In this document: piece after piece, positions 12,068 to 30,180 of the stretch
How the letters are laid out: each line of letters starts with the position of its first letter
Position numbering within the stretch: the stretch's first letter is position 1
The notes under the pieces: model-generated
Seen by the model: only the letters and a program-made list of their open reading frames with translations
What the model was told of the DNA's origin: nothing
Database searches by the model: none
Program-made: the position numbers and the translations under genes
IMG/VR virus record: IMGVR_UViG_2565956618_000007
Origin: a virus
Lineage: Duplodnaviria; Heunggongvirae; Uroviricota; Caudoviricetes
Length of the DNA: 56,181 nucleotides
Strand: one strand, 5' to 3'

Positions 12068-12133
12068 ACTCATCTACAATCTTGCGCGGGGCTGAACTCC
12101 CGCTGAGTAACACCGTGCCACCGGAGAAAACCG

Positions 12134-12412: not shown

Positions 12413-12413
12413 C

Positions 12414-13463
12414 GTGCGGGTATTACTTAGACCTGTTCTGGTGCCTGAGCTTGGGCTGGTGGTCCTTAAGCCGGGCCGTGAATCCATACAGATATTTCAT
12501 AATCCTCGAGTGCTGGTGGAACCGGAACCAAAAAGCATGCGTAATCTGCCATCCGGAGTCGTTCCTGCCGTTCGCCAGTCGCTGGCGGAAGACAAAACAT
12601 TGCTGCCGTTTTTTAGTAACGAACGGGTGATTCGTGCTGCTGGCGGTGTTGGCGCATTGTCTGACTGGCTATTACGTCATGTTACATCCTGCCAGTGGCC
12701 TAATGGCGATTACCATCACTCTGAAACAGTCATTCACCGTTATGGTACCGGCGCAATGGTGTTGTGTTGGCACTGCGACAACCAACTGCGTGACCAGACA
12801 TCGGAATCACTGGAGCTGCTTGCTCAACAAAATCTGACAGCATGGGTGATTGACGTCATCCGTCACGCAATAAGCGGTACGCAGGAGCGGGAATTATCTT
12901 TGGCTGAATTATCCTGGTGGGCGGTCTGCAATCAGGTGGTGGATGCACTACCTGAGGCTGTATCGCGTCGTTCGCTGGGATTACCAGCGGAAAAAATCTG
13001 CTCGGTGTACCGCGAAAGCGACATCGTACCGGGAGAGCAGACCGCCACCAGCATATTGAAACAACGCACAAAAAATCTTGCACCGTTGCCTTACGCCCAC
13101 CAGCAACAAAAAACACCACAGGAAAAGACGGTGGTAAGCATCACCGTTGATCCAGAGTCTCCGGAATCTTTCATGAAGCTGCCTAAACGTCGCCGCTGGG
13201 TTAAGGAGAAATACACACGTTGGGTTAAGACACAGCCGTGTGCTTGCTGCGGTATGCCAGCCGACGATCCGCATCATCTGATTGGTCACGGGCAGGGCGG
13301 AATGGGAACAAAAGCACATGATCTCTTTGTGTTGCCTTTGTGCAGAAAGCATCACAACGAGCTGCATACGGATACAGTGGCATTTGAAGAGAAGTATGGC
13401 TCCCAACTGGAGCTGATATTTCGTTTTATCGATCGCGCGCTGGCAATTGGCGTACTGGCGTAA
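12414..13463 (+). CDS. ydfU: DUF968-family phage protein (YdfU-like) with C-terminal Cys/His-rich HNH-like motif
   Basis: GTG start after RBS GGAGG; 349-aa product; C-terminus CACCGMPADDPHHLIGHG…CRKHHNELH; position upstream of Q as in Qin. Confidence 0.7.
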   Translation: MRVLLRPVLVPELGLVVLKPGRESIQIFHNPRVLVEPEPKSMRNLPSGVVPAVRQSLAEDKTLLPFFSNERVIRAAGGVGALSDWLLRHVTSCQWPNGDYHHSETVIHRYGTGAMVLCWHCDNQLRDQTSESLELLAQQNLTAWVIDVIRHAISGTQERELSLAELSWWAVCNQVVDALPEAVSRRSLGLPAEKICSVYRESDIVPGEQTATSILKQRTKNLAPLPYAHQQQKTPQEKTVVSITVDPESPESFMKLPKRRRWVKEKYTRWVKTQPCACCGMPADDPHHLIGHGQGGMGTKAHDLFVLPLCRKHHNELHTDTVAFEEKYGSQLELIFRFIDRALAIGVLA

Positions 13464-13476
13464 GTGGAGAACGAGC

Positions 13477-14229
13477 ATGAACCTTGAAGCCTTACCAAAA
13501 TATTACTCCCCAAAATCTCCAAAATTGAGCGATGACGCTCCAGCGACAGGCACCGGTTGTTTAACAATTACGGATGTAATGGCAGCGCAGGGGATGGTGC
13601 AGTCGAAAGCACCACTTGGGTTGGCCTTATTTCTGGCAAAAGTTGGTGTTCAGGACGCTCAGTTTGCGATTGAAGGCCTGCTAAATTACGCGATGGCACT
13701 GGATAACCCGACATTGAACAAATTGAGTGAAGAAATCCGGTTACAGATTATTCCTTACCTCGTGAATTTTGCCTTTGCTGATTACTCCAGGTCTGCGGCA
13801 AGTAAGGCTCGCTGTGAGCATTGTTCAGGTACGGGATTTTATAATGTATTGCGCGAAGTGGTGAAACACTACAGACGCGGGGAATCTGTAATCAAGGAAG
13901 AATGGGTGAAGGAACTATGTCAGCATTGCCATGGTAAGGGCGAAGTCAGCACAGCGTGCAGAGGGTGTAAGGGTAAAGGGATTGTTCTGGATGAAAAAAG
14001 AACCCGGTTTCATGGCGTACCGGTATATAAGATTTGTGGGCGTTGTAATGGAAACCGGTTTAGTCGTTTACCGACCACGCTGGCACGACGTCATGTCCAG
14101 AAGCTGGTACCAGACCTGACCGATTATCAGTGGTATAAGGGGTATGCGGACGTCATTGGTAAACTGGTAACAAAGTGCTGGCAGGAAGAAGCATACGCGG
14201 AAGCGCAATTGAGGAAGGTGACGAGATAA
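13477..14229 (+). CDS. quuQ: Late-gene antiterminator Q
   Basis: 250-aa product from MNLEALPK; paired Cys-x2-Cys motifs (CEHCSGTG…CQHCHGKG…CRGCKGKG…CGRCNG) typical of Q-family zinc fingers; followed by a short-transcript terminator. Confidence 0.8.
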
Positions 14230-14335
14230 ATGATTTTTGCTGAAGATGGCGACATGATGTTTGCATTTTTCAAAAAACATGGATAAGATTTTCTCAACGA
14301 TGGGCTTTGTGTATCCGACGTTTAGAAAAAAGTAG

Positions 14336-14362
14336 AAAACCCGCTTATAAGCGGGTTTTTGT
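14336..14362 (+). terminator. tR'-like intrinsic terminator downstream of Q (Q-antitermination target)
   Basis: Hairpin CCCGCTTATAAGCGGG followed by TTTTT about 110 bp after Q; matches lambdoid pR'-tR' architecture. Confidence 0.6.
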
Positions 14363-14904
14363 GCTTTAAATGGGGCAATAGAGATATTGAATCTCATCCC
14401 GGGATAAACATTGGCAGTTGAAGGTCCACGCGAACCATTTATCCAGCAAAATTCCACGCGTAATCCTGTGGTAATTTCTTCTGCATCTCGAAGATTGAGA
14501 GCTGAAACGTGAAGCTGGGCATCGATACGCCATCGGATGGGAATATAAGACCTTTGCTGCTTTTGTAGTCAAAGTTTTTGACAATTCCTGTCATTTTAGG
14601 GGACAGAAAAACTCCTTAATACTGATAACCTGGTGCACCATACACACGTTCCTGGAGAAAACTACTTTTTTGATAGGATTGAAGGTGGCTGGATGTCTAA
14701 AATAAACATTGCTTCATATGTTCAACTATGAGTTAATGACTGCGTCGGTTTGAAGAACAGACGATATACGAAGTAGTTTACTAAAGCAGTTCTCATTTCA
14801 GGTGTTATTCACTTATTCCTTCTTTGAGTCTCTCCAATTAAGTACGAAGTCGTTTCTGTTATGCAAACCATTTATGCCGAAAGGCTCAAGTTAAGGAATG
14901 TAGA

Positions 14905-15120
14905 ATGTCAAATAAAATGACTGGTTTAGTAAAATGGTTTAACGCTGATAAAGGTTTCGGCTTTATTTCTCCTGTTGATGGTAGTAAAGATGTGTTTGTG
15001 CATTTTTCTGCGATTCAGAATGATAATTATCGAACCTTATTTGAAGGTCAAAAGGTTACCTTCTCTATAGAGAGTGGTGCTAAAGGTCCTGCAGCAGCAA
15101 ATGTCATCATTACTGATTAA
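14905..15120 (+). CDS. cspB: Cold-shock protein CspB-like
   Basis: 71-aa product [21 protein letters not shown]… with RNP motifs; long upstream leader typical of csp genes. Confidence 0.9.
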
Positions 15121-15401
15121 AATTCATCGCTCGTCTGTATACGATAACGAAGAAGGCTGATGCCTGAGTAGAGATACGGACAGAGTAGTGAATATTGGAT
15201 CTCTTTAATAAAAAGTAAGGAGGTCCAATACATGAAACAATGGCTAGTATATTTGGCAAAATCTTAATCAGGAAAAGTATGCTAACCATTGTGGTGAAGT
15301 GCAGGTTTGCTGCATGAATAGTTTCACAGCAGAAGCTAACTGCTGGCATCGCAAAACAAAGTGCGTAAGTGGATGACTCCCACAAAAAGCACCACAATCT
15401 C

Positions 15402-15426
15402 AAACCCGCTCAGGCGGGTTTTTTAT
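15402..15426 (+). terminator. Intrinsic terminator
   Basis: Hairpin CCCGCTCAGGCGGG followed by TTTTTTATT. Confidence 0.55.
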
Positions 15427-15483
15427 TATCTGCTTTAAATATATTATTAAAATATAAAAAATACTTGTTACTAATAAAATCAA

Positions 15484-15657
15484 TCAGGCTACAGCTTTAA
15501 GATTTGTCTGGAATACTTTGTTGCAATGAGGGCAGATCAAAAGGGCACCTTTTTGTACTCTTGAAAAACTGTGTTCTGACTCTTGGGTGCAGTTTGGGCA
15601 GGAACATTTGACGAGATAATTACGGCGTGATTTTGAGTCTTTACGTTCTGACATAGG
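15484..15657 (-). CDS. Small zinc-ribbon protein (two Cys-x2-Cys pairs)
   Basis: 57-aa product from internal Met (MSERKDSKSRRNYLVKCSCPNC…CPHCNK…) with RBS AGGAAAAG; the ORF-track start at 15705 lacks an RBS. Confidence 0.5.
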   Translation of the reverse strand, partial: PMSERKDSKSRRNYLVKCSCPNCTQESEHSFSRVQKGALLICPHCNKVFQTNLKAVA

Positions 15658-15874
15658 CTTTTCCTGTATAAATGGCCGTATACAGTACACTAAATATGAA
15701 AACATTTCTCGTATTATTATTTTATATATGACTTTCTTTCAAAATAATTACTCACATTTTTAATGTGTATGTTTCTTTAGCGCCGTTGAGAACAACGTGT
15801 GCTGTCAAAACTACCCCGTAGACTCCGATCTTTTTCAAACATATTGCACCATCCGTGTACATCGGGGTGAGGAT

Positions 15875-16090
15875 ATGAAATCAATGGATAAGTTAACAAC
15901 AGGTGTTGCCTATGGCACATCGGCGGGTAATGCTGGTTTCTGGGCATTACAGTTACTCGATAAAGTAACTCCGTCACAGTGGGCTGCAATCGGTGTGCTG
16001 GGTAGCCTGGTTTTTGGCCTGCTGACGTATCTGACAAATCTTTATTTCAAGATTAAAGAAGACAGGCGTAAGGCTGCGAGAGGAGAGTAA
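15875..16090 (+). CDS. essQ: Pinholin, S21-family (EssQ-like) with dual-start motif MKSM
   Basis: 71-aa product [18 protein letters not shown]…[11 protein letters not shown] closely resembles remembered phage 21 S pinholin; RBS GGGGTGAGGA; two Mets three codons apart. Confidence 0.85.
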
Positions 16091-16094
16091 TCCA

Positions 16095-16402
16095 ATGACT
16101 CAAGACTATGAACTGGTTGTGAAAGGAGTCCGTAATTTTGAGAATAAAGTTACGGTAACTGTAGCCTTACAGGACAAGGAACGCTTTGACGGTGAAATTT
16201 TTGACCTGGATGTCGCCATGGACCGTGTTGAAGGAGCTGCGCTGGAGTTTTATGAGGCAGCAGCCAGAAGGAGCGTCCGGCAAGTCTTCCTGGAAGTAGC
16301 AGAAAAATTGTCAGAAAAAGTTGAGTCTTATCTGCAGCATCAGTACTCCTTTAAGATTGAAAATCCTGCCAATAAGCACGAGCGTCCTCATCATAAATAT
16401 AT

Positions 16403-16406
<4 letters not shown>
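16095..16406 (+). CDS. ydfR: YdfR-like acidic protein between holin and endolysin
   Basis: 103-aa ORF 4 bp after the holin stop, overlapping the endolysin start; same size and position as Qin ydfR. Confidence 0.6.
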
Positions 16407-17430
<1,024 letters not shown>

Positions 17431-17792
17431 GGTAATATTAAATCGGAACATTTACATCGCGGAATGTAAAATTTAAATAAAAAGGACTCTTCCATGAGCC
17501 AAAATTCCTGAAATCTTAAGGGTAAGATAAAAGGTCTTAATCAGAATGACACGTTTTATTAATAAATAAAGCTATTCTTTCATTGCTGTGTTTTTCTTTA
17601 CAAAAGTAATCCTTGCTATGGGTGGTTAATCATGCGTTAATGGTGTTCTGGTTTGTTACAAATTTATCTGAAGCAGTCATTGTTATAATTTTATTATTTG
17701 TACCTCTTGAGATTTCCTTGTTGGTTTTTCTCTCTGATATTTTTTTTCGGACCATTCTGCCCAAGGGCTAATTTCTTCAAAAGGTAATAATT

Positions 17793-18005
17793 ATGTCTAA
17801 CAAAATGACTGGTTTAGTGAAATGGTTTAACCCTGAAAAAGGTTTTGGTTTCATCACGCCGAAAGATGGCAGCAAAGATGTGTTTGTCCATTTCTCAGCA
17901 ATTCAGAGCAACGATTTCAAAACATTAACTGAGAATCAGGAAGTTGAATTTGGTATTGAGAACGGACCTAAAGGTCCTGCCGCTGTTCATGTAGTGGCGC
18001 TTTGA
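17793..18005 (+). CDS. cspI: Cold-shock protein CspI-like
   Basis: 70-aa product [34 protein letters not shown]…; RBS AAGG upstream. Confidence 0.9.
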
Positions 18006-18208
18006 GGTAGACAATATTACAAACCATATTCACTTTAGATGCCCGTGTTGTCATGGTTCCCAGTATAGAACATCATCTTTTGATGTTTCTGACATGAATC
18101 CTTTCGGGGCAAAATGTATCTTTTGTAAATCAATGATGATTACATTTGATAATATTTCACAATACTTAAATGCCAGCCGTCTGTCGTTGGATTTAAAAAA
18201 GTGAAAAT

Positions 18209-18234
18209 GAAGGCTCCTTCGGGAGCTTTTTTGC
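18209..18234 (+). terminator. Intrinsic terminator downstream of cspI region
   Basis: Hairpin GCTCC-TTCG-GGAGC followed by TTTTTTG. Confidence 0.55.
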
Positions 18235-18276
18235 TTGGTATCTATTCGATGGATACTCACATACTACGGTAACATC

Positions 18277-18507
18277 ATGAAAAAAATCATAGTTTTTTTT
18301 AACTCTGAACCAGCAGTGGTAGTGCCAGCGATGACTGGAGTTAACACCATCATGCGTGAATATCCAAATGGCGAAAAAACACACCTTACTGTAATGGCCG
18401 CAGGGTTTCCATCTCTGACCGGAGATCATAAAGTCATTTATGTAGCCGCGGATCGACATGTTACTTCAGAAGAAATTCTGGAAGCAGCAATAAGGCTCTT
18501 GAGTTGA
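18277..18507 (+). CDS. Small hypothetical protein (YnfN-like position)
   Basis: 76-aa product from internal Met MKKIIVFF…; no family recognised. Confidence 0.5.
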   Translation: MKKIIVFFNSEPAVVVPAMTGVNTIMREYPNGEKTHLTVMAAGFPSLTGDHKVIYVAADRHVTSEEILEAAIRLLS

Positions 18508-18678
18508 TTTGATGCTATTGTATTGATAATTCAGGAAAATTCTCTTTGTCTGTTTGTGTAAAATTTAGACTATCGTATGTTGATTATTGCGATGTTTCAT
18601 CTTATCTTTTACACGTTTGCACCATATAATCGACTTACTGTGTAACTGGAAAGTCATAACAGACTAAAAGAGGAAATG

Positions 18679-18852
18679 ATGAATATTGAAAACTTAAAAA
18701 CAAAAGCAGAAGCAGATATTTCTGAATATATAACAAAAAAAATTATTGAACTTAAGAAAAAGACCGGGAAAGAAGTTACCAGTATTCAGTTTACCGCACG
18801 GGAAAAAATGACGGGTCTTGAAAGCTATGATGTCAAGATTAATTTAATCTGA
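18679..18852 (+). CDS. gnsB: GnsB-like small protein
   Basis: 57-aa ORF (below ORF-track cutoff) MNIENLKTKAEADISEYI…FTAREKMTGLESYDVKINLI with RBS AGAGGAA; C-terminal REKMTGLESYDVKI matches remembered GnsA/GnsB. Confidence 0.7.
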   Translation: MNIENLKTKAEADISEYITKKIIELKKKTGKEVTSIQFTAREKMTGLESYDVKINLI

Positions 18853-19003
18853 TGTATTCAATAATAAAATTTATCCATAAACCTCGTTTTTACGGGGTTT
18901 TGTTATATTTGAATGGTTCCGAATATCTAAATCACAATTGTTGATGGTTTTTATTAAACCAATGCAGTCCGGCTCAGGAGTGAGAGAAGCCGGACGTTAT
19001 GGT

Positions 19004-19414
19004 TTAGCGTGGTAAGATCTGTGTAGTTTTCTGGATGCTTTCAGTAAATAGTAATGAGTTATCAAAGGCATAGTAATATCTTTGGTGTTCCTGGATATTT
19101 GTAACCCATCGGAAAACTCCTGCTTTAGCAAGATTTTCCCTGTATTGTTGAAATGTGATTTCTTTTGATTTCAACTTATTATAGGAGGTCTCTATAAGAT
19201 GTTTGTTTCTGGAGAATTTAACATTTACAACCTTTTTGAGTCCTTTTACTAACACTATGTTGTCGTTTTCTAACACAATGTGAATATTATCTGTGGCTAA
19301 ATAGTAAATATAAAGTGAGACATTGTGACGTTTTAGCTCAGAATAAAATAATTCACAGTTTAAATCTTTACGCACTTGATCGAATATTTCTTTAAAAATG
19401 GCAGCCTGAGCCAT
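19004..19414 (-). CDS. ydfO: YdfO-like DUF1398 protein
   Basis: 136-aa product from [18 protein letters not shown]…; resembles remembered Qin YdfO; ORF track offers an upstream start at 19429. Confidence 0.7.
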
Positions 19415-19714
19415 TGGTAAACCTTCCATGTGATACGATGGCGCGTAGTTAGCATTATCGTGTTTATTGTTTCAATCTGGTCTGACCTCTTTGTGTTTTG
19501 TTGATGATTTATGTCAAATATTAAGCCTGTTTTTGATGAATAGTGTTGATTGCGTAACAAAATTGAGCCTTGCTGGCATCCAGGAGGGATATGCAACCGA
19601 CAGATGTATGTAAGGTCGATGTACTCAAACTTTCATACTTTTCCTCTTTTATGCAGTAAGATTTGAAGTAATATTTTAACCGCTAGATGACGAGCAAACG
19701 CATGGAGCGACAAA

Positions 19715-19921
19715 ATGAATAAAGAACAATCTGCTGATGAACTCTCGTTGGATCTGATTCGTGTAAAAAATATGCTTAATAGCACCATTTCTATGAGTTA
19801 CCCGGATGTTGTAATTGCATGTATAGAACATCAGGTGTCTCTGGAAGCATTCAGGGCAATTGAGGCAGCGTTGGTGAAGCACGATAAGAATTCGAAGGAT
19901 TATTCCCTGGTGGTTGACTGA
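19715..19921 (+). CDS. Small hypothetical protein (YnfO-like position)
   Basis: 68-aa ORF upstream of the cos-like region. Confidence 0.5.
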
Positions 19922-20249
19922 GCACCATAACTGCTAATCATTCAAACTATTTCACCTGTGACAGAGTCAATATCGCATTCTGTCACTGTCAGGCTAATAC
20001 AGAGCTGCAATTCAACTACTGCAATGTCCTCGTAATTAGGTGAATTTACAATATCGTCCTGTTCGGATGCCTGTTGCATTGCTGAAGATGAGGCATTTAT
20101 GGTTCGCATATTTTCCCCTCATGCTCGTCAGTCCTGTGCGTAGGAAGAAACAGGACACTCACACTAATTTGTGTGGGCATGCTGTGATGTCCTTCTGAAT
20201 TATTCCTATGCCATTATGTAAAGCGCTGTATCAGATGCTCATCACGGCT

Positions 20250-20305
20250 GTCAGGCTGTCAGGCTGTCGGGTCCTCCCGGTGGGGGCCCCTGCCACGGGG
20301 CGGGA
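20250..20305. other. Candidate cos region: three tandem octamers GTCAGGCT/GTCAGGCT/GTCGGGTC followed by a GC-rich element with central GGGGCCCC palindrome and TCCCG…CGGGA inverted arms
   Basis: Read directly; lies about 180-230 bp upstream of the Nu1-like small terminase gene, where lambdoid cos sites sit; no match to lambda cosN recalled. Confidence 0.3.
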
Positions 20306-20480
20306 GCGTCGCGGAAAAAGACTAGTTTTTGCATTTCCATGGCGGCGGCAGCATGTTTGGTAATTTATTGATAATTAAAAGTTATTTCTCTTTTCACCTG
20401 TACAATATTTTTTCTCCCTGTCATTAGACCAGTTTGCAATTAATTGAAATATATAAATAAACCTGATTTTCACCTGCCAG

Positions 20481-21020
20481 ATGGAGTTGCTTATGTCAAA
20501 TGTGAGCGGGATCGGTGATGCTTATTACTGGAGTGTTTTTAAAATCGCCGAGGCCTTTGGGCTTCACCGGGACACAGTAAAAAAACGGCTCCTCGCGGCC
20601 AACACTCCTGTGGCTGCGACTGTCAGGGGGAACCCCGTTTACGCCCTGCAGCATGTCGGGCCCGCCCTGTTTAGTGTGAAGCATGAGGCAGCAGACTCTG
20701 TTCATGATCCATCCCGTATGGAGCCGAAAGAGAGAAAAGACTGGTACCAGTCTGAAAATGAAAGGATCAAGCTGGAAAAGGAGCAGCGAAAACTCATCCC
20801 AGTTGATGAAGTAGTCATCGTCTATTCGTCCATGAGAAAGGCTGTCGTCCAGGTTCTGGAGACAATTCCGGATGTTCTTGAACGCGATTGCGCCCTGACT
20901 CCTCAGGCCGTCGGCGTTGTACAGCAGGCCATTGATGACCTGCGATACACTCTTCAGGAAAAATCCTACGAGGCTTGTGCTGCTGAATTAATTCCTGATG
21001 AGGAAGGAGAGAGTCTCTAG
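20481..21020 (+). CDS. nohA: Terminase small subunit (Nu1/NohA-like)
   Basis: 179-aa product with N-terminal HTH-like segment and acidic C-terminus; immediately upstream of a large-terminase N-terminal fragment. Confidence 0.75.
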   Translation: MELLMSNVSGIGDAYYWSVFKIAEAFGLHRDTVKKRLLAANTPVAATVRGNPVYALQHVGPALFSVKHEAADSVHDPSRMEPKERKDWYQSENERIKLEKEQRKLIPVDEVVIVYSSMRKAVVQVLETIPDVLERDCALTPQAVGVVQQAIDDLRYTLQEKSYEACAAELIPDEEGESL

Positions 21021-21028
21021 GAGGAATA

Positions 21029-21352
21029 ATGGGTTTTTCATCAGCCCGAAATTTGGGAAGGGACATATCGGCAGGATTTTCCCCACCACGTCGCATGCCG
21101 ATTTCGGAGGCTGTTAAAAAATTCATGCGTGTTCCCAAGGGGGCTGGTAACTCGGTGCCATGGGATCCTGAACTGACACCCTACATCATTGAGCCCATGA
21201 ACTGCCTGGCATCGCGTGAATACGATGCGGTGATTTTTGTTGGTCCTGCGCGAACAGGGAAGACCATTGGTCTGATCGATGGATGGATTGTCTATACCAT
21301 CGTTTGCGATCCTTCGGACATGCTCGTTGTGCAGATGACCGAAGATAAGTGA
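21029..21352 (+). pseudogene. Terminase large subunit (GpA-like), N-terminal 107-codon fragment; truncated
   Basis: RBS AGGAGGAATA then ATG; the product ends after …VQMTEDK at the point where Mu-like prophage DNA appears to begin; intact GpA-type terminases exceed 600 aa. Confidence 0.65.
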
Positions 21353-21359
21353 TCAGACA

Positions 21360-21392
21360 TGAGATAAATGAAGGGGGATCCGTGAGATAAAT
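21360..21392. repeat. Direct 10-bp repeats TGAGATAAAT x2 (23-bp spacing) at the prophage end: candidate transposase-binding end repeats
   Basis: Read directly just after the terminase truncation; Mu-type ends carry repeated transposase-binding sites a few bp from the terminus; identity unverified. Confidence 0.3.
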
Positions 21393-21545
21393 AACGAATT
21401 GGAGTGGGTTAACATGGGTTCTGGTGAACAGAACTGAAATTCTTTTCCGCTATACGATAGATAAGTCGGGCATTGAAATCATCCTTCCTGGCAACTTAGA
21501 ATCGAGTTTGCTGAAACATGACCCGCAACAAAAAGGATGATTCCA

Positions 21546-21707
21546 ATGACTACTCAAAACAATAAGCATGATAGCCTGGATTACTCAGAAAAGCCCAAAA
21601 GCAAGCACATCGTGACGTTCGAGCGCGATTCCGGTAGAAAAGGAGAATCGTCTTCCTCTGCCAATAAAACCACTATGCCGGCAGCCCCTGCCCCAGGGAA
21701 AAAATAA
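21546..21707 (+). CDS. Small hydrophilic hypothetical protein
   Basis: 53-aa ORF (below ORF-track cutoff) with RBS AAAAGGA 8 nt upstream; convergent with the membrane-protein gene. Confidence 0.3.
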   Translation: MTTQNNKHDSLDYSEKPKSKHIVTFERDSGRKGESSSSANKTTMPAAPAPGKK

Positions 21708-21710
21708 ACA

Positions 21711-22343
21711 TCATTCATCGTTCGTTGCACGAACGCGCCTGATCTCCACTCTGGCAATCTGATCTGCTGGAATATAGGTTGCCAGAGCTCCCCAGTACTT
21801 ATCAACCACGCCTTTATACTCTTCCCATTCGTTACTGCCTGAAGGGCTGCTGTGCGTGACGTAAAGAACCATATCGCCTTTATTCCCCAGGGTAAACGGA
21901 CCGTTAGGCCACTCTTCAAAGTTCCCTGGCAGCCGTGACATCATACCGGAACCATCGCGAAGAATCACTCTGACCTCGGTAACGCTGAAGCCTGTTTGAT
22001 CAAACATTGCCTGCCATGCTGAGCTGGTATCGTCAGACCATGAAACATCATTATTCCACAGTAATCTGTACATCCATTTGCGACCGTACCTGCGCCACCA
22101 CGCACCGCATGTAACGGCACACAGAAGTGCTGGTGGTGTTGCCAGCCAGGCATTCAGACCTGCCCACATAACAGCCTGGTAAGCCATCATTGCTGTCAGG
22201 CCAAAAATCAGCGAAGAAAAAGTCACCTCAATGGGCTTGTGGTGATCCTTCAGTCCCACATTCGCAATAAAATACCCAATATAGCCACTGGTCAGGGTCA
22301 CCAGTGTTGCCCATGGCAGATTTAACAACGAAACGTCAAACAT
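21711..22343 (-). CDS. Membrane protein with three N-terminal TM helices and a soluble C-terminal domain; candidate moron (superinfection exclusion?)
   Basis: 210-aa product from MFDVSLLNLPWATLVTLTSGYIGYF… with RBS AGGGAGA; separated from Mor by an intrinsic terminator; last gene before the prophage end. Confidence 0.7.
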   Translation of the reverse strand: MFDVSLLNLPWATLVTLTSGYIGYFIANVGLKDHHKPIEVTFSSLIFGLTAMMAYQAVMWAGLNAWLATPPALLCAVTCGAWWRRYGRKWMYRLLWNNDVSWSDDTSSAWQAMFDQTGFSVTEVRVILRDGSGMMSRLPGNFEEWPNGPFTLGNKGDMVLYVTHSSPSGSNEWEEYKGVVDKYWGALATYIPADQIARVEIRRVRATNDE

Positions 22344-22381
22344 ATTTTCTCCCTGCATCCTGAATACTAAAGAGAGAGCAT

Positions 22382-22411
22382 AAAAAAAGCACGGTAAGGG
22401 GTCTACCGTGC
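22382..22411 (-). terminator. Intrinsic terminator downstream of mor (minus strand)
   Basis: Stem GCACGGTA/TACCGTGC with 7-nt loop, followed on the minus strand by a run of seven U. Confidence 0.6.
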
Positions 22412-22457
22412 TTTTATACAATAAGGAGATTTTTGAAAGGACTTTAACAAGCAGGAA

Positions 22458-22856
22458 TTATCTGGATTTGTTAACGTCTTTCGTCTCCTCTGGCAGATCT
22501 TCATCAAACAACCTGCCCTGCATCCGATCCAGTTCTTCTTTTCTGACCCGCTTAACCACGCTGTAGACCCACTGAAGCGAAACACCAAACTTGCGGGCCA
22601 GTTCGTGGTGGTTGCGTCCGTTAAACTCCCTGAAGATTTCCCGGTCGCGCTGACTGACCTTCCATACCATGCCCATCGGGAAATAAACGTTTTGCCCGCC
22701 CCAGACCTGCATCATTCGGTTCGCGACGGCCTGACCAATCTGGTCGGCAATTGCGGGCTCAATATCAATAATCTCGCGAACGGTCTCAGAGGTATGCTGT
22801 GCCAGCTCCACCAGGAGTTCCGGCCCTTTACTTCGAAACTGATTCAGGTCGCTCAT
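22458..22856 (-). CDS. mor: Mor-family middle transcription activator
   Basis: 132-aa product; C-terminal …WGGQNVYFPMGMVWKVSQRDREIFREFNGRNHHELARKFGVSLQWVYSVVKRVR aligns with remembered Mu Mor. Confidence 0.85.
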   Translation of the reverse strand: MSDLNQFRSKGPELLVELAQHTSETVREIIDIEPAIADQIGQAVANRMMQVWGGQNVYFPMGMVWKVSQRDREIFREFNGRNHHELARKFGVSLQWVYSVVKRVRKEELDRMQGRLFDEDLPEETKDVNKSR

Positions 22857-23277
22857 GTTTTACTCCCGCAGCTCTGTGCTGCCACTTCTTCAGTTTCTCA
22901 ATAACACTGCTTGCCTGTTCAGTATTGAGCCAGCGCAGGGCGCTGATGCCCGTTTCCCGCTTGATCCACCGCGCTAATGCATTTTCTGAACGGTCACGAA
23001 CAATGCCGGCAGCAGCCATTTCAAGCCATAGCGCACGAATTTTCCTGGACTGCGGATGGTTATCCAGCGGTAAACCGGAGCTGGCTTTTCTGGCTGGTTT
23101 AACGCGAAAGCCTTTCTTTTTCATGGATTCCAGCACGCAGTTTAGTTGTGTGGTATCCATTCCTTTGGTTGAGGCTTTACCGGTCAGCCCCTGTAACATC
23201 TGGCGGTAGGTGTCTTCATCCATACCCAGTTCATTACGGGCAATATGGATAAGCTGTATCAGGCGTTTTTTCTGCAT
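22828..23277 (-). CDS. GemA-like (Mu gp16 family) protein
   Basis: 149-aa ORF overlapping mor by 29 nt; position and size as Mu gemA; assignment tentative. Confidence 0.55.
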   Translation of the reverse strand: MQKKRLIQLIHIARNELGMDEDTYRQMLQGLTGKASTKGMDTTQLNCVLESMKKKGFRVKPARKASSGLPLDNHPQSRKIRALWLEMAAAGIVRDRSENALARWIKRETGISALRWLNTEQASSVIEKLKKWQHRAAGVKHERPESVSK

Positions 23278-23278
23278 A

Positions 23279-23485
23279 TCATCTCCTTTTTTTCAGTCTG
23301 TCGGCAACAATGTCGGTTGCAGCTGGCAGGGTGACTGGCCAGAACAACATGACGGCGGTCATGTACAGGATGTAATGCGCGGTGTCGTAGTGCCTGCCAT
23401 AGCCCAGGGAACGATGAAGTCTTGCGCTGCATGATCCTGCGTACATATACCAGAAAAGAAAACAGACAATGGTTTCAGTAGTCAT
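23279..23485 (-). CDS. Small membrane protein
   Basis: 68-aa product from internal Met (MTTETIVCFLFWYMYAGS…) with two hydrophobic segments. Confidence 0.45.
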   Translation of the reverse strand: MTTETIVCFLFWYMYAGSCSARLHRSLGYGRHYDTAHYILYMTAVMLFWPVTLPAATDIVADRLKKRR

Positions 23486-23705
23486 TCTGAATACCTCCCC
23501 ATTCGATATGAATATTACGGGCAGCAATGACAGGGTCGTTATTCCACCATGCACCTGACATGTATTTTTCAACCTGTTCGCGTCCGGCAATAACACCAAT
23601 TGTGATCCCCGGCCTGACGTTCTTAAAAAAGGCGCGGGCAAAAAGGTATCTGGCAGATATTCGGCAGGCTTTTAATTTCCGGCTGTTACCTGATAGCGTA
23701 ATCAT
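23475..23705 (-). CDS. Hypothetical early protein
   Basis: 76-aa ORF; start overlaps the upstream stop (ATGA coupling). Confidence 0.45.
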   Translation of the reverse strand: MITLSGNSRKLKACRISARYLFARAFFKNVRPGITIGVIAGREQVEKYMSGAWWNNDPVIAARNIHIEWGGIQNDY

Positions 23706-24385
23706 CTGGCCTCCAGTTTCTGTTGTTCCTGCCCACTGACCGGGCGGTGCAGTCTGACGTTCTGCCCTTCACGAAACCCCGCATAGCGCGAGGCGTCGCC
23801 ATTGCGGCTTCTTCCCGGTTTACGCGCCCTGGTGGTTTGCGTCTGCGGGTATTTATGTTCCAGCCACTGTTGCATCAGTTCACGCTCATCATCGGTCAGG
23901 GCAAAGGACTGTATTTCACTGATAACGGCCAGTACCCAGCCTTCAGCAAACTGGTCTCCACGGCTGGTACGGGTGGCGTTTTTTATTCTTTTGTTCTGTG
24001 CGCTGATATACTGCTGACGCGCCTTTTTCAGCTGGCGGACCAGCACTTCCCAGGTGTACGCAGCCAGTGCCGCTCGTTCCCGGTTACCGTAGAACCCCAC
24101 AGACGGATGCGTGCCGGGGTGAATGATGGAGTTAACACCAAATGCCTCGCGGATGATGTTCATCAGGCCCAGCATGTAGCGCGGTGGACGGAGACTGCCT
24201 GTCGGCCAGTAATGACTGATGGTTTCATCAATATCACTCATAGCAATGTCGGAATGTGTGATGCCGTGAACATCCATCAGTTTACGGGCTCGGCGCAGTG
24301 CCAGAGCGGCCTCGTGCGGGTTGCCGGATGCGGCCAGCGCCAGCAACTTTTTCAGTTTCTCAATGTGTTTATTCTGGTCTGTCAT
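23702..24385 (-). CDS. Hypothetical early protein (DUF2786-like N-terminus)
   Basis: 227-aa product from MTDQNKHIEKLKKLLALAASGNPHEAALAL…; ATGA overlap with upstream gene. Confidence 0.6.
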   Translation of the reverse strand: MTDQNKHIEKLKKLLALAASGNPHEAALALRRARKLMDVHGITHSDIAMSDIDETISHYWPTGSLRPPRYMLGLMNIIREAFGVNSIIHPGTHPSVGFYGNRERAALAAYTWEVLVRQLKKARQQYISAQNKRIKNATRTSRGDQFAEGWVLAVISEIQSFALTDDERELMQQWLEHKYPQTQTTRARKPGRSRNGDASRYAGFREGQNVRLHRPVSGQEQQKLEAR

Positions 24386-24597
24386 TGTTCTGTATCTCCG
24401 GTATTTTTCTGCCGTTTCCATGCCCGGACAGCGTCGGACAGCTCTTTCAGGCTGTATGCTGCTTTAAGCTTTTCCCATAACCACTGTGTTGTTATGTGCA
24501 TCAGCAGGGCAGCCAGGGCTGCCCCCGCACTGAGGCATGTCGCCAGGCCAGTAAGAATCAGTGTCCATGCGGTGATTTCCCTGAGTATGTCAGCCAT
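24382..24597 (-). CDS. Small membrane protein
   Basis: 71-aa ORF with one central hydrophobic helix. Confidence 0.5.
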   Translation of the reverse strand: MADILREITAWTLILTGLATCLSAGAALAALLMHITTQWLWEKLKAAYSLKELSDAVRAWKRQKNTGDTEQ

Positions 24598-24611
24598 TGA
24601 ATGCCTCCCGG

Positions 24612-24908
24612 TTACTCGTTCGTGTAAATCACGCCCAGTCGTGCAGCCAGACGTTCCAGTTTTTTCTGTTTGTGGAAGTCAATCAGCCGGTCCATCCCCT
24701 GAAGGCGCAGTTGCTCTGTCATGATTTCCACGTCTGCCAGCTCTGCCGCGAGGTCACTTTCGCTGCCCTGTCCGTTCAGATTGCGGGCAGCACTGGCCGC
24801 CAGTTCAGCGGCCTCTTCTGTCAGTTTCAGGGCCTGTGCGTCCGGCCCGAAACGCTGCAGGGCCAGACGGTAGAGGGCGGTGCGGGTGAGTTCGGTGTTT
24901 CGTGTCAT
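24612..24908 (-). CDS. MazG-like nucleotide pyrophosphohydrolase domain protein
   Basis: 98-aa all-alpha product with EEAAEL…E…DL..ELADV acidic motifs typical of small MazG/HisE-type NTP-PPases. Confidence 0.6.
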   Translation of the reverse strand: MTRNTELTRTALYRLALQRFGPDAQALKLTEEAAELAASAARNLNGQGSESDLAAELADVEIMTEQLRLQGMDRLIDFHKQKKLERLAARLGVIYTNE

Positions 24909-24917
24909 GCCGCGCCC

Positions 24918-25190
24918 TCAGTGCTTCCGGCTGACGGTGATGTGCAGGCCGCCTTCTGCAGTGGTTTCCATCCGGTACGGCACCTCATGCTCTGCCGTGT
25001 GGGTGAGTGTGTTCATCAGTACCTGCAGGGCAGCCTCCTTTCCGTTGGTCGCCACAATGGCCTGTGTGGCCATGCTGATTAGCGCCGTCAGGACGTGCTT
25101 CACATCGGTGAGGTCGCGGCATTCACACTCGTTGACATAGTGTTCAACAAGAGTTCGGGTGCGCTGTCGTGCTTCCTGTGGGGTAATCAT
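24918..25190 (-). CDS. Hypothetical early protein
   Basis: 90-aa ORF in the early operon. Confidence 0.5.
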   Translation of the reverse strand: MITPQEARQRTRTLVEHYVNECECRDLTDVKHVLTALISMATQAIVATNGKEAALQVLMNTLTHTAEHEVPYRMETTAEGGLHITVSRKH

Positions 25191-25381
25191 TGCGCGTCCT
25201 CCCTGTCAGGGCGGGAGAATTCTATGACGGGCACGTCCGCCGAAAAATGCTGGCTGCAGTACGGGCAGACCAGGGTGACACGTACTGCAGGTATGTGATA
25301 CTTACCGGACATCACGGCGATGGCGCTGTGAAAACGCAGGGCTGTTATATCCCTCTCGCACTGAATACATTTAAATATCAT
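25187..25381 (-). CDS. Small zinc-ribbon protein
   Basis: 64-aa ORF with CxxC…CPYC motifs. Confidence 0.5.
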   Translation of the reverse strand: MIFKCIQCERDITALRFHSAIAVMSGKYHIPAVRVTLVCPYCSQHFSADVPVIEFSRPDREDAQ

Positions 25382-25478
25382 AATTTAATTCTCCTCTGTT
25401 TCCGGCGTGCAGAAGCCCGCGGCGCTGACGCCGGAATAAAAAAGAAAATGTTTTTATTAAATAATTAACGTGGTGTGT

Positions 25479-26009
25479 TTACTGCACATCCTGCTCAAAA
25501 GGAATTATTGAAAAATCCTCAATATCACTTTTTATGGTAATACCGGGAATATTTTTCACAGCCTCTTTTTCATTCAGAATGGCATCTTTATTTATTTCCT
25601 CCTTTACACGAATAAAGCGCTCAAGCCCCAGACGTCTCAGTAATTCAATAACATTATCCGCCCCGCGAATGCTGACTGACGGCGGACGGTTTCGCCACTG
25701 CACCTCGCCGGTGGTGAGGTTAGCGAACTTCACCTTCCCGTTGCCGGTCAGTTCATCACGGTGCGCCTCACACCATGTCTGGATACCGGACTGCAGTTCG
25801 GCCATGCGTTTTTTCAGGCTCTCGGTGAGCGGGGCATAACGTGCAGTGATGTCGCCAATGGTGTCATTCATTTCTGTTTCAGCCCTGACCAGTTCACGTT
25901 GCGCGTCACCAAGCAGTCTGATTCCCTCAATGACCTCTTCGCGTGTCCCCGGCACCCAGAGTGCTGCTGCGGCTTTGATACGTTTTGCCCCTTTTGTACT
26001 TTTTGCCAT
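25479..26009 (-). CDS. gam: Gam-like host-nuclease inhibitor (Mu Gam family)
   Basis: 176-aa product; …ETEMNDTIGDIT…WCEAHRDELT…PPSVSIRG…GITIKSDIEDFSIIPFEQ closely matches remembered Mu Gam. Confidence 0.9.
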   Translation of the reverse strand: MAKSTKGAKRIKAAAALWVPGTREEVIEGIRLLGDAQRELVRAETEMNDTIGDITARYAPLTESLKKRMAELQSGIQTWCEAHRDELTGNGKVKFANLTTGEVQWRNRPPSVSIRGADNVIELLRRLGLERFIRVKEEINKDAILNEKEAVKNIPGITIKSDIEDFSIIPFEQDVQ

Positions 26010-26036
26010 ATTTTATGACTCCTCCTGTTGTGCTGA

Positions 26037-26306
26037 TTACCACAAAGATTCCGGCCACACGACGCGACAGCCGTGCAGTTCGAAAACGCCCTGACGGAAA
26101 TGTCCCCTGTGGTCATGACCGGTATACAGATAACAGGCCTTTCCCTGCTCAAGCATGCGCATGCAATGCGCACTCCGGGAAACGCGGATGACAGGTTTGT
26201 TACCCCTGATGGTGATGCTTTGTACATCCGTGTTCGTCGCCTTAAGCGCCATAATGGCTGACTGCACTTTGCTGATTTGCTGGTTGATACCTGTGGTGGA
26301 TTTCAT
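26037..26306 (-). CDS. Hypothetical early protein (kil-region position)
   Basis: 89-aa ORF between B and gam. Confidence 0.5.
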   Translation of the reverse strand: MKSTTGINQQISKVQSAIMALKATNTDVQSITIRGNKPVIRVSRSAHCMRMLEQGKACYLYTGHDHRGHFRQGVFELHGCRVVWPESLW

Positions 26307-26308
26307 TA

Positions 26309-27475
26309 TTAAACCCCTTTGACAACGTCAGCGTTGACCTGTGGAACCCCGATTTCAGCGGCCAGATTCATGGCGGCTATTACCAGGTTACTGACGGCCA
26401 GCGGATACAGCAGGCTGACCATATTTTTACGATGACTTCCCGGATTGCTCAGGCGGGCACGTATGGCATCCACTGCGCTGGCGTCCATAATGTCCGTCAG
26501 TTGTTTACCGGCCCGTTGCAGTTTGAACGTCAGAAACTCTTCAAGGTTATTGTCCAGAGGCAGAAGTTCGACCACCTCACAGCGCTGAACGACTTCACGG
26601 ACTTCCATATTGCGTTCAGACAGTTTTGTCGCCAGTTCCGGCTGGCCAATCAGCACGATGGACAGCAGTTTTTTGAAACCGGACTCCAGCTCAAAAAAGC
26701 GTTTGAGGTGTTTCAGTGTCGGAATGGGCAGACTGTGGGCCTCCTCAATCACCAGAACGTGGCTGAACCCCGCCTGGCTGCTGTCTTTCAGGACGCGATG
26801 CAACTGGCGAAAGCGGGCGTCCTGACTGCGTCTGATGCTTTCCAGTGGTGCGATGGTACTGATAATGGCTTCGGCAATCGCTGCTGCCTTCAGGGTTTTC
26901 CCTTTCACATCGTTGTCTTCCATAGCGATGATGTATGGCTCGATAACAATTACCGGCGCATTCTCGCGGTTGATACGTTCAGTCAGGTCGCGGCGCAGCG
27001 TGGATTTACCCGCACCGGACTCACCGATGACGGCCATAAACCCACCATGACGGGCTGTCTGGTACAACGCCTCACGCACGTAGCGAATATCCGGGGTGGT
27101 GAACACATCATCAGAACCCTGCATGGCTTCGTCGGCGAACGGGTCACGGAAAAGACCAAACGCTTTTTTGGTTGCTGGAAATAACACCTGTTTTTTGAGT
27201 AACATATTCTCTTCCTCACTGAGGCTCGTTTTATCTGTGGTACCCGCTGTACGGGGCGTGGCCGCGCCCTGTACAGCATCAAAACTCTTCGTTGTATCAA
27301 TCCCCTGACTTTCCAGCCAGGACGCAAGACGCCGGCGCACTTCTCCGGGGCTGGTGCGGGGCCACGCGTTATGATTCACAATCTGGGCCAGCGTGGCCTC
27401 AGAAACATCGACAGCTCTCGCCACCACCGCCTGTGGAATACGGGCCTCTTTCAGTTGCTGCTTCAGTACCAGCAT
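26309..27475 (-). CDS. Mu B-like transposition ATPase (AAA+)
   Basis: Start at MLVLKQQLK with RBS GAGGAGGG; N-terminal HTH, Walker A VIGESGAGKST, Walker B-like VLVIEEAH; directly downstream of the transposase. Confidence 0.85.
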   Translation of the reverse strand: MLVLKQQLKEARIPQAVVARAVDVSEATLAQIVNHNAWPRTSPGEVRRRLASWLESQGIDTTKSFDAVQGAATPRTAGTTDKTSLSEEENMLLKKQVLFPATKKAFGLFRDPFADEAMQGSDDVFTTPDIRYVREALYQTARHGGFMAVIGESGAGKSTLRRDLTERINRENAPVIVIEPYIIAMEDNDVKGKTLKAAAIAEAIISTIAPLESIRRSQDARFRQLHRVLKDSSQAGFSHVLVIEEAHSLPIPTLKHLKRFFELESGFKKLLSIVLIGQPELATKLSERNMEVREVVQRCEVVELLPLDNNLEEFLTFKLQRAGKQLTDIMDASAVDAIRARLSNPGSHRKNMVSLLYPLAVSNLVIAAMNLAAEIGVPQVNADVVKGV

Positions 27476-27485
27476 GTTTCCCTCC

Positions 27486-29255
27486 TCAGTTGCCGTTAAC
27501 AATGCTGATAACACTGCTGCTGGCCGGTGTGGTCAGCGTGGCCATGACTTCATCCAGTGCGGCTTCCGGTACGCCGTCCGGGTACTGTGCCGTTAACTGG
27601 CGGTAATGTTCCGGCGTCCAGGTAAGGCCGTCGGCGCTGAACTTATCGCGCAGGGCTTTCGCGGCCTCCACATGAGTCATGGGACGTTGTTCAGTGCGCG
27701 GCCCGCGTACGTCAGAGGCCTGACCACGCTTCGGCATATAGGCCGGAAGTGTGGTGTCGTCGATATGTTTATACGGGTCAAGCCGCCCGCCGAACGGCAG
27801 CGCCTTCGCCTTGCGTGCGGCGGCTGCATCTGCGGCGTTGTCTGTACCGGTAACCAGCGCTTCAGTTTCTTTTGCCGCCATCTGTGCCGGGGTTTCCGGC
27901 AGGGCTTTGTAACTTTCGCCAAATACCGCCGCGCCTTCAGCAAAGCCAAACTCGTTCTTTCTGACCTCTTCGACCAGGAAGAACGTCTCGTGGCCGTCCT
28001 CACCGGTCAGAACCACCTGTGCCACATCGCTGCGCCATGGGTTACGGGTAATCATCAGTTTTTCACCAACCAGTACGCCCGGTACCGTTGATACGTCAAA
28101 TTCAGTGCCCCGGAACGAGACACGAAGTTTTGGCGTGACTTTGCGGAGTTCTGGTGCCGCCACAGCCAGTTCACGACATACCTCAACGGAAGGCGCTTTT
28201 TTCAGCTGCTCAGCAGTAATCTTCAGCCAGATATCCGTGCGGGTTTTACCGTGGCGGCTGTGAACAGCCGTGGCGTTAAAGTGGCTGCGCCATTTCGCGG
28301 CCAGCGCGTTGAGTTCTTCCAGACTGTGAACCGGCCGGAACTTCAGACCCGGCTCCAGCTTGCGTTCGATAATGTCCCGCGCCTTTTCCACCTGTCCGGT
28401 GGCGCGGGCGTTATGCGGCTTGTGCGCTATCAGGTCAATGCCCAGTGAGCGGCACATGTTTTTCGTCATACCCGCGGTGTTTGCCGAGCCGGGGTCGAGA
28501 TAGAGTATTTTTGGCACGCCGTGCAGCACGTCTGCGCCGCCACGCTCCTGCATGGCGTTGATAAGCACAGAACACAGGTTCTCACCGGATTCCGCACCCG
28601 TCACATACTCAACGTAAATCCAGCCGCTGGCATGGTCGGTAATCTCATAACTCCACACGCGGTCACTGGCGATACGGGCAAGGTTAGCGGGCTTGTTCTT
28701 GTAGAATTTCGCGCTGTCCATCACCTGCAGCCCTTTGTGTCCATTGCTCAGGTAGTAAAGCGTGCAGAGCGAGGCATCAATCTGCCAGACGTGATTGGGA
28801 TGCAGACTGGCCACTTCGGTATGCGGCGCAGGGGCATCCAGTTGTTCCGGGTGCAGGCCATAGTTACGCAGGGCACGGCTGATGGCATCTTCGGACAACG
28901 GGAAAAACTCACCGGTGGTTTCATCTGTTCTGCCTGCGGAGATAAAGCCGTTAGCCCGCAGGGTTTCCACTGCATCTGCGATGGAATAGAGACGCTTACC
29001 GTTCTTGCGGGTGGCCTCACGCAGTGTGGCAGATATCAGCGCGGCTTCGTCGCGGGTCAGGGCGCTGCGCCCGGCATCGGCGCGTTTTTTGCGTTTATCA
29101 GTCACAGAGACCTCCTTCAGCCTGCGCAGCAGAGTGGCGCGGGACATGCCAAGTTCAGCACAGGCAGCGTCGTATATTGCACCGCGTTTACCATGCCCCG
29201 CGTCACGTGCCGCGCGGGCGACATAAACCAGTCGTTCAGTCAGGGCAGCATTCAT
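27486..29255 (-). CDS. Mu A-like DDE transposase
   Basis: 589-aa product with N-terminal DNA-binding region and rve-type core (…HVWQIDAS…LYLDPGSAN… and a downstream E). Confidence 0.9.
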   Translation of the reverse strand: MNAALTERLVYVARAARDAGHGKRGAIYDAACAELGMSRATLLRRLKEVSVTDKRKKRADAGRSALTRDEAALISATLREATRKNGKRLYSIADAVETLRANGFISAGRTDETTGEFFPLSEDAISRALRNYGLHPEQLDAPAPHTEVASLHPNHVWQIDASLCTLYYLSNGHKGLQVMDSAKFYKNKPANLARIASDRVWSYEITDHASGWIYVEYVTGAESGENLCSVLINAMQERGGADVLHGVPKILYLDPGSANTAGMTKNMCRSLGIDLIAHKPHNARATGQVEKARDIIERKLEPGLKFRPVHSLEELNALAAKWRSHFNATAVHSRHGKTRTDIWLKITAEQLKKAPSVEVCRELAVAAPELRKVTPKLRVSFRGTEFDVSTVPGVLVGEKLMITRNPWRSDVAQVVLTGEDGHETFFLVEEVRKNEFGFAEGAAVFGESYKALPETPAQMAAKETEALVTGTDNAADAAAARKAKALPFGGRLDPYKHIDDTTLPAYMPKRGQASDVRGPRTEQRPMTHVEAAKALRDKFSADGLTWTPEHYRQLTAQYPDGVPEAALDEVMATLTTPASSSVISIVNGN

Positions 29256-29258
29256 TGG

Positions 29259-30170
29259 TTATGCCTCCAGCCCGTTAATCTGTGGCGTCGGCTCAGTCAG
29301 CCATGAAGGCGCGACATCGCCTGTTGGCTCGTCCGGCAGGTCAAATGTGGAGCGCAGGCTACGCGCTGTGCTTTCCAGTTGACAGACCAGGCCTGCCATG
29401 AAGTCTCTGGGGGTATCAATCATGTTTTCAGCACAATATGCGCACAGTGTCTCAAAAGCGCTGGACAGTCGAACGGCGATGGCAGATTCCGCCTCAACCG
29501 CTAATGCTGTCACTTCCGCCCGCAGCTTCTTAACCTCCTCATCAGGCTCAGGCAGCTGAATACGGGATTTCTTTTCCAGTCTGGTAGAGAGAGAATCAAT
29601 TTTTTCATTTTTATCGGCGAGTACGCGCTGTTGTGCTGCGTTGGTTTCGCGCGCTTCGCGCAGGGCCTGGCGAAGTTCGCGTACTGACATGCGATCAACG
29701 TCGTCAAGCGTCAGGCCGGCAACTGTGCCGCCGTCGGCCAGTTCGGCAAGCTCTTCGTCGTCTTCTGTCATTAATTCGAAAAGTTTGGCTTTTCCCAAAT
29801 GTGCCAACGTTGGCACATTTGGTTTCAGCGCCGGGGATAAGTATTTTGTCGATGCTTGCATCATTCTCACAGATGTCCGGTATGCCAGCCCCAACTCACT
29901 TTCAAGAATCTTTATAAACTCCCCGTGTGGTTCATTTTCCTTAAGGATTATCAGCCGCTTACCTGCCTCCAGCATGGCCTCAGCGCTCTGTGCCATATAA
30001 AAGCGTGCCTCATGGACAACACGATCGCGCTCATAAGGCAGACCATCGCCGAACTGTTGCATGATTTCCATGCGATGCTGTGTCATGGCGTTTAGACTGA
30101 CATTGAGATCATCCGACAGCGGTACCTCGACGTTCAGTTCAGTGCTAACCGGTGATTTGGTGCGTCCCAT
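29259..30170 (-). CDS. Hypothetical early protein (DUF3102-like)
   Basis: 303-aa ORF between ner-proximal regulators and the transposase. Confidence 0.55.
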   Translation of the reverse strand: MGRTKSPVSTELNVEVPLSDDLNVSLNAMTQHRMEIMQQFGDGLPYERDRVVHEARFYMAQSAEAMLEAGKRLIILKENEPHGEFIKILESELGLAYRTSVRMMQASTKYLSPALKPNVPTLAHLGKAKLFELMTEDDEELAELADGGTVAGLTLDDVDRMSVRELRQALREARETNAAQQRVLADKNEKIDSLSTRLEKKSRIQLPEPDEEVKKLRAEVTALAVEAESAIAVRLSSAFETLCAYCAENMIDTPRDFMAGLVCQLESTARSLRSTFDLPDEPTGDVAPSWLTEPTPQINGLEA

Positions 30171-30180
30171 TGATTACTCC

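Follow-up and report, generated by a model that had tools for sequence, protein, structure and literature searches.

In Escherichia coli 907391, a BcepMu-like phage of about 38 kb has almost certainly inserted by transposition into a lambdoid prophage already resident there, interrupting its large-terminase gene. The stretch of DNA that was analysed (56,181 nucleotides, hereafter the window) is identical to sequence of scaffold KI531039.1 from the draft assembly of this strain (GCA_000488315.1), and its features are collected in Table 1. An initial annotation, made from the letters of the window, had proposed an insertion by transposition into this gene. The proposal is upheld by an intact allele, a break that falls to the base on the terminal TG of the element, ends that mirror one another, and a reciprocal fusion at the far side. 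The phage family and the disruption of genes by transposable phages are well known, many near-identical copies of the element are already annotated, and a close relative has been isolated. What is new here is the insertion site alone, and no new biology is implied by it.

The lambdoid part of the window has an uninterrupted counterpart, as had been envisaged in the initial annotation, in the prophage of E. coli ATCC 25922. Window positions 1–21349, which start right after rspB, differ from that prophage by 2 mismatches in 21,349 bp and zero indels. By megablast, positions 20300–21349 are 100% identical to many genomes that carry the gene, named "phage terminase large subunit", at full length. 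The terminase of ATCC 25922 has 699 codons and matches the Pfam families GpA_ATPase at residues 40–303 (4.9e-81) and GpA_nuclease at residues 325–643 (1.8e-86). The ORF list of the window gives a terminase ORF of 107 codons followed by a stop (21029–21352, plus strand), so the GpA-like ORF does end at 21352 as first annotated. It matches GpA_ATPase at profile positions 2–68 of 247 (E = 1e-19), which is about the N-terminal quarter of the profile, and the C-terminal GpA_nuclease domain is absent. Judged by this domain content, the 107-codon ORF is a gene fragment, or stump, and not a functional member of the gpA family. In the public annotation of 907391, the stump appears as ESC92355.1, 85 amino acids long from Met23, on a scaffold of 112,342 bp. 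The first 107 codons include what we read as a Walker A-like motif, GPARTGKT, and the DUF1441 gene just before them occupies the slot where the small terminase subunit would be expected. Downstream of the terminase, portal, protease/capsid, tail, and tail-fibre genes follow in the ATCC 25922 prophage, which looks complete. Elsewhere in the lambdoid part of the window, positions 8982–10769 (minus strand) encode a 595-residue DUF7380/DUF4209 protein with a match (2e-102) to PDC-S39, a candidate defence family of PADLOC.

At the left junction, the identity of the flank to the uninterrupted allele is 100% up to the last base preceding the element. The window there reads ...GAA GAT AAG / TGA TCA GAC (the slash marks the boundary), whereas ATCC 25922 reads ...GAA GAT AAG / GCC CGC GAG..., that is, GATAAG followed by GCCCGCGAG. 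The element starts with TGATCAGACA at all other sites examined, and the GC content rises after the junction from about 0.35–0.48 to 0.50–0.58. A megablast search of the junction in 5,426 complete E. coli genomes resolved the query into two independent halves, and no genome of this set spans the left junction. An exact search with 39 nt across the junction likewise gave no match in GTDB species-representative genomes, IMG/VR, or JGI metagenomes. The junction is known from one draft assembly, in two records of the same contig.

Table 1. Coordinates of features in the window (a point in the strand column denotes no strand assignment)
Feature	Position	Strand	Basis or remark
Lambdoid prophage, left part, from the rspB-side attachment site and integrase to terminase codon 107	1..21349	+	Colinear with ATCC 25922 (L017 3785-25133)
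DUF1441 gene	20481..21020	+	Pfam DUF1441 E = 1.7e-44; directly precedes the terminase in ATCC 25922
gpA-family large terminase, N-terminal 107 codons	21029..21349	+	Identical to codons 1-107 of the 699-codon ATCC 25922 gene
Target hexamer GATAAG, left copy of the 6-bp duplication	21344..21349	.	6-bp duplications at three other copies; duplicated Asp-Lys in ESC89464.1
TGA stop of the shortened terminase, the first three bases of the element (terminal TG)	21350..21352	+	GCC in the uninterrupted allele
Left 34,832 bp of a BcepMu-like transposable prophage (total about 38,007 bp)	21350..56181	.	Gapless match to KE50 copy positions 1-34832
Terminal repeat L1, TGAGATAAAT	21360..21369	+	Positions 11-20 from the tip; putative transposase-binding site
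Terminal repeat L2, TGAGATAAAT	21383..21392	+	Positions 34-43 from the tip; 23 bp after L1
Mor-family late-gene activator, distal end of early operon	22458..22856	-	Pfam Mor E = 1.1e-43
GemA homologue	22828..23277	-	Pfam GemA E = 9.8e-41
Mu Gam-like host-nuclease inhibitor	25479..26009	-	Pfam Phage_Mu_Gam E = 1.1e-40
AAA+ transposition ATPase, counterpart of TnpB/MuB and BcepMu gp08	26309..27514	-	Pfam AAA_22 E = 3.8e-20
Transposase (589 aa), rve catalytic core	27486..29255	-	Pfam rve E = 1e-8; Tn552/IS1604-type in the BcepMu annotation
Small helix-turn-helix regulator, head of early operon	30181..30489	-	Pfam HTH_IclR E = 2.5e-5; BcepMu gp12 counterpart
CI-type repressor, divergent from early operon	30703..31206	+	Pfam HTH_3 5.9e-12, Phage_CI_repr 2.5e-6; BcepMu gp17 counterpart

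Past the break, the initial annotation had seen a Mu-like early operon. Genes for Mor, GemA, Gam, an AAA_22 ATPase, and an rve transposase are indeed present there on the minus strand; the operon is, however, that of a BcepMu-like phage rather than of Mu proper. As in transposable phages generally, both Mor and GemA are encoded (Pfam), and the transposase and ATPase genes adjoin on the same strand, the ATPase holding the position of BcepMu gp08 ("DNA transposition protein"). Genes on the minus strand begin at 21711, and the late genes occupy the plus strand between about 34.4 kb and the window end. The ORFs of the window and the annotations of KE50 and BcepMu agree on these divergent clusters, in which the early genes occupy the bottom strand next to the left end and Mor is closest to it. 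In the BcepMu-like family the direction of reading of the early operon is toward that end, which is why the Mor end of the operon abuts the junction.

The extent of the element was obtained by comparison with a complete copy of 38,007 bp in KE50, to which positions 21350–56181 are 99.66% identical. As this alignment is without gaps and covers the first 34,832 positions of that copy, the element should run on for about 3.2 kb beyond the window before its right end is reached. The left 1.1-kb end (21350–22450), queried alone and counted as present at a coverage of at least 80%, was found in 118 of the 5,426 complete genomes. The element is mobile: its flanks vary among genomes (fliC, rstB, gspL, kefF, yfiB, xylR, irp1, clbG, mdfA, and others), while alignments of the element to other genomes start at window base 21350. 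Some genomes have two or three places that match the element end.

Three complete copies of 37.7–38.6 kb were extracted, from KE50, ABU 83972, and elppa9. The first interrupts fliC, the second rstB, and the third (L015, reverse complement of 2398–41039) has independently split the small-terminase gene of another prophage, next to trkG. All three start with TGATCAGACATGAGATAAATG... and end with ...CATTTATCGCGCGGCGCATCA, which in short form gives the termini TGATCAGACA...GGCGCATCA (TGAT...ATCA), and each is flanked by a target duplication, TCTGAG in KE50, ACAAAT in ABU 83972, and GGACTG in elppa9. The duplication had been anticipated to be 5 bp long; it is 6 bp in all three complete copies, and in 907391 the duplicated Asp-Lys described below points to the hexamer GATAAG.

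Two direct repeats within 40 bp of the break had been noted initially as possible end-binding sites. The decamer TGAGATAAAT does occur exactly twice in the 56-kb window, the two copies starting 8 nt and 31 nt beyond the terminase stop. By our estimate, about one to two ten-base direct repeats within 40 bp are expected by chance in a window of this size, so a 10-bp repeat is by itself weak evidence. The same register was therefore compared at the other ends. At the right end of the element, positions 11–20 and 34–43 hold CGCGATAAAT and TGCGATAAAT, respectively; in BcepMu, they hold TGAGATATTT and CGCGATATTT at the left end and CGCGATATTT and CGCGATAAAT at the right end. The matching repeats that had been foreseen at the other terminus are thus present: both ends of the element carry GNGATAAAT at positions 12–20 and 35–43, with TGAT at positions 1–4. 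At all four ends (two of the element, two of BcepMu), the best self-match period is 23 bp. Because motif and register are common to both ends and to the distant BcepMu, the TGAGATAAAT repeats are read as functional end sites, and by analogy the transposase would bind these paired repeats.

The left end also occurs as a solo relic of 145 bp (corresponding to window 21359–21503, 89.7% identity) that retains both TGAGATAAAT sites and has the tip TGCATCAATGAGATAAATG; about 150 E. coli records contain it. Of all places matching the left-end query, 105 are on plasmids, and the relic matches listed are mostly on large plasmids of about 160–380 kb. In the one example inspected, on plasmid pSA186_2 (L018 3994–4144), the relic gives way to unrelated DNA and remnants of IS3 and IS1. 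Judging from these matches, the relic appears to derive from an old insertion by a related phage, a remnant of which has been widely inherited.

We then turned to the right end of the element. Scaffold KI531039.1 (112 kb) ends 581 bp past the end of the window, inside the tail-fibre region; as this is before the right end, the right junction must be on another contig. A predicted junction was assembled from the right end of the element, GATAAG, and the ATCC 25922 terminase from codon 108, giving ...GCGCGGCGCATCA GATAAG GCCCGCGAG (in longer form, ...CATTTATCGCGCGGCGCATCA followed by GATAAG and GCCCGCGAGCATTC). The longest ORF over this junction encodes 610 amino acids, begins with an ATG located 48 nt within the element, and reads MPFIAQDRVHLSRGAS-DK-AREHSKK.... 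This predicted fusion is exactly ESC89464.1, annotated as "phage terminase large subunit [Escherichia coli 907391]" and encoded on one contig of 13,348 bp. The protein consists of 16 residues from the right end of the element, the duplicated Asp-Lys, and the remaining terminase. Both halves of the terminase are hence present in 907391, each abutting one end of the element, and Asp-Lys codons are found at both junctions, as a 6-bp duplication of GATAAG predicts. The continuation of the terminase past the right end, which the initial annotation had made a point to check, is accordingly seen at the protein level, the level at which the right junction is supported in this draft genome with the two halves on separate contigs.

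Start codons that read outward are present at both ends of the element (left, window 21350–21360; L003 44269–44286), with the result that what remains of an interrupted gene on the distal side is annotated as a fusion ORF. In KE50, such an ORF for the remnant of fliC begins 18 nt inside the left end, and in 907391 the terminase remnant begins inside the right end in the same manner. Beyond the tail-fibre region, the complete copies have alternative tail-fibre genes, encoded on opposite strands, together with a recombinase gene. We read this arrangement as a probable Gin-like invertible segment; such a segment would probably account for the break of the scaffold at this place.

Other accounts of the junction were weighed against insertion. 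The initial annotation had named one of them, in which the terminase of the lambdoid prophage was already cut short or deleted and the transposable prophage merely adjoins the end-point of the deletion. An exact look-up of the 107-residue product did return 21 contigs in other samples, but among the nine of these that were listed, eight end 0–2 nt after codon 107, and any further bases, G or GC, agree with the intact allele. As a pre-existing short allele these contigs were rejected, since they are mostly contig-end truncations picked by the exact length of the look-up, and a 107-codon fragment in strains without the element, which had been raised as a sign against insertion, is not what the eight represent. 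The break, moreover, coincides to the base with the terminal TG of the element, and the remaining gene in the same strain is fused to the right end, from the duplicated Asp-Lys and then the next codon. With a base-exact terminus and a reciprocal junction, an earlier deletion is effectively excluded. Nor does an assembly chimera fare any better as an explanation: the junction is carried by only one assembly, as would be expected of a chimera in a draft genome, but a chimera would not fall exactly on the terminal base of the element or give a reciprocal junction with a 6-bp target duplication on another contig, and we regard it as exceedingly improbable.

It is also conceivable, though very unlikely, that the insertion occurred as described and the locus was later rearranged, by homologous recombination between two copies of the element or with another prophage, in which case the two halves may not flank one continuous element. 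The two terminase junctions are on different contigs of the draft assembly, the scaffold stopping in the tail-fibre region, which makes a later rearrangement possible while leaving the origin of the break unaffected; matches to the element end at two or three places in some genomes point the same way. Yet an invertible tail-fibre segment with its recombinase would be a routine cause of a contig break, both junctions carry the matching duplicated target, and there is no sign of a second copy of the element in 907391.

The ninth contig mentioned above (L006 8525–8553; Logan SRR36003123) is an exception among those listed and comes from a different lambdoid prophage. In it, the same terminase runs as far as ...GAAGATAAG and then gives way directly to 28 nt of unrelated sequence, TAAGCGACTCGTCAGAACCGTATTGATA, at which the contig ends, and the contig likewise yields a 107-residue product. 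This 28-nt junction is absent from complete E. coli genomes and had no match among the loci retrieved.

The preferred reading is DDE transposition of a BcepMu-like temperate phage into a resident lambdoid prophage at terminase codon 107/108, and its steps can be proposed by analogy with Mu, B3, and Tn552. A transposase of the Tn552/B3 family with an rve core would bind two sites per end, spaced by 23 bp and with the consensus YGMGATAWWT (positions 11–20 and 34–43), and would cleave at the terminal TG...CA. Together with the adjacent AAA+ ATPase, it would join the ends to the target with a 6-bp stagger, and repair would then duplicate GATAAG. The Tn552 transposase binds two 23-bp direct repeats per end, which would fit the 23-bp spacing in the element. 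The TGA of the element now closes the terminase frame after 107 residues; the remaining 592 codons, in frame with 16 codons read out of the element, would lie about 38 kb away past the right end. Because the split falls within the ATPase domain, directly behind the Walker A-like motif, neither fragment should function, and the lambdoid prophage of 907391 should consequently fail to package DNA.

For annotation, the short "terminase" ORF is to be treated as the stump of a split gene and not as a gene in its own right, and the lambdoid prophage of 907391 is to be scored as packaging-defective although it is otherwise complete-looking. The exact ends of the E. coli BcepMu-like prophage (TGATCAGACA...GGCGCATCA, two 10-bp sites per end, 23-bp spacing, 6-bp duplication) can be used by prophage-boundary callers. 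Packaging genes were hit in two independent cases, the large terminase here and the small terminase in elppa9, a count subject to ascertainment bias and drawn from only about 20 insertion sites with an identifiable flank. It seems very unlikely that these hits are other than neutral accidents and that the phage family preferentially targets, or is preferentially retained in, the terminase genes of rival prophages as a form of competition between prophages.

The transposase of the element is 98.6% identical to that of Escherichia phage PhiKM, 93.5% to that of Klebsiella phage KP12, 68.5–69.4% to those of BcepMu and phiE255, and about 57% to those of a group of Pseudomonas phages; the match to BcepMu gp09 has 68.5% amino-acid identity over 98% coverage (tblastn). 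No Pfam family besides rve was matched by the transposase, and a PDB sequence search with it returned nothing useful. A megablast search with the 10-kb early region returned PhiKM, KP12, and Phi06_2974 B along with 100-bp Pseudomonas matches. BcepMu was not found in this search and, as there is no similarity to it at the nucleotide level, membership of the same genus is not claimed. PhiKM (PQ738613.1, uropathogenic E. coli; early region 95.8% identical in DNA), KP12, and the prophages of ABU 83972, KE50, and elppa9 are essentially the same phage as the element. This group differs only in insertion site and in the variable cargo region between the repressor and lysis genes. A literature search on "PhiKM" returned only unrelated papers on phiKMV and phiKZ.

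The element has the same gene order as the transposable myoviruses BcepMu (Bcepmuvirus) and phiE255. On the bottom strand, the left end is followed by Mor, GemA, small genes, the AAA+ ATPase, the transposase, a DUF3102-like gene, and the HTH regulator, and on the top strand repressor, lysis, head, and P2-like tail genes follow one another. PMC2771037 places BcepMu genes 1–13 on the bottom strand and 17–52 on the top strand, and assigns the transposase to the Tn552/IS1604 family rather than to MuA. BcepMu and the element are also alike in their TG...CA termini, which PMC2628397 gives as characteristic of BcepMu relatives, and in having two end sites at positions 11–20 and 34–43. The 6-bp duplication, in turn, is presented as the footprint of B3/Tn552-family transposases in PMC8705779. 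Judged from the transposase, the divergent gene clusters, and the 6-bp duplication, the element shares the organisation of BcepMu and would work in the same way. The two differ in host, which is enterobacterial for the element and Burkholderia for BcepMu, and in the about 1.1 kb with two extra small genes that the element has between its left end and Mor. At its right end, the E. coli element adds the recombinase gene next to the alternative tail-fibre genes. The cargo differs as well, being an NA37-family gene, a 401-residue gene, and a Dam-like methylase gene in the element and an acyltransferase in BcepMu.

With phage Mu, the element has in common its lifestyle and logic, with random transposition, homologues of Mor, GemA, and Gam, a pair of transposase and ATPase, TG...CA ends, and a short target duplication. 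Unlike in Mu, the transposase matches only rve in Pfam, the early operon is inverted with respect to the late genes, the target duplication has 6 bp instead of 5, and the tail genes are P2-like according to the BcepMu annotation. By these features, with a transposase that is not of the MuA type and gene clusters that are not co-oriented, the element is not Mu proper (Muvirus). The 6-bp duplication is shared with Tn552 and phage B3; Tn552 is a small staphylococcal resistance transposon and not a phage, and is likened to the element by family annotation.

The cargo between the repressor and lysis genes of the transposable prophage is low in GC (about 41%) and comprises two genes on the plus strand (31277–33492). 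The first encodes a protein of the NA37 nucleoid-associated family (1e-80), and the second a protein of 401 amino acids with no Pfam match and a weak PADLOC match, in the C-terminal part only, to KwaA of the Kiwa defence system (8e-5). Next after this pair, on the opposite strand, is a gene for a Dam-like D12 methyltransferase (33482–34252, minus strand). The NA37/401-residue pair is kept in the KE50 copy, while the ABU 83972 and elppa9 copies have other genes in its place.
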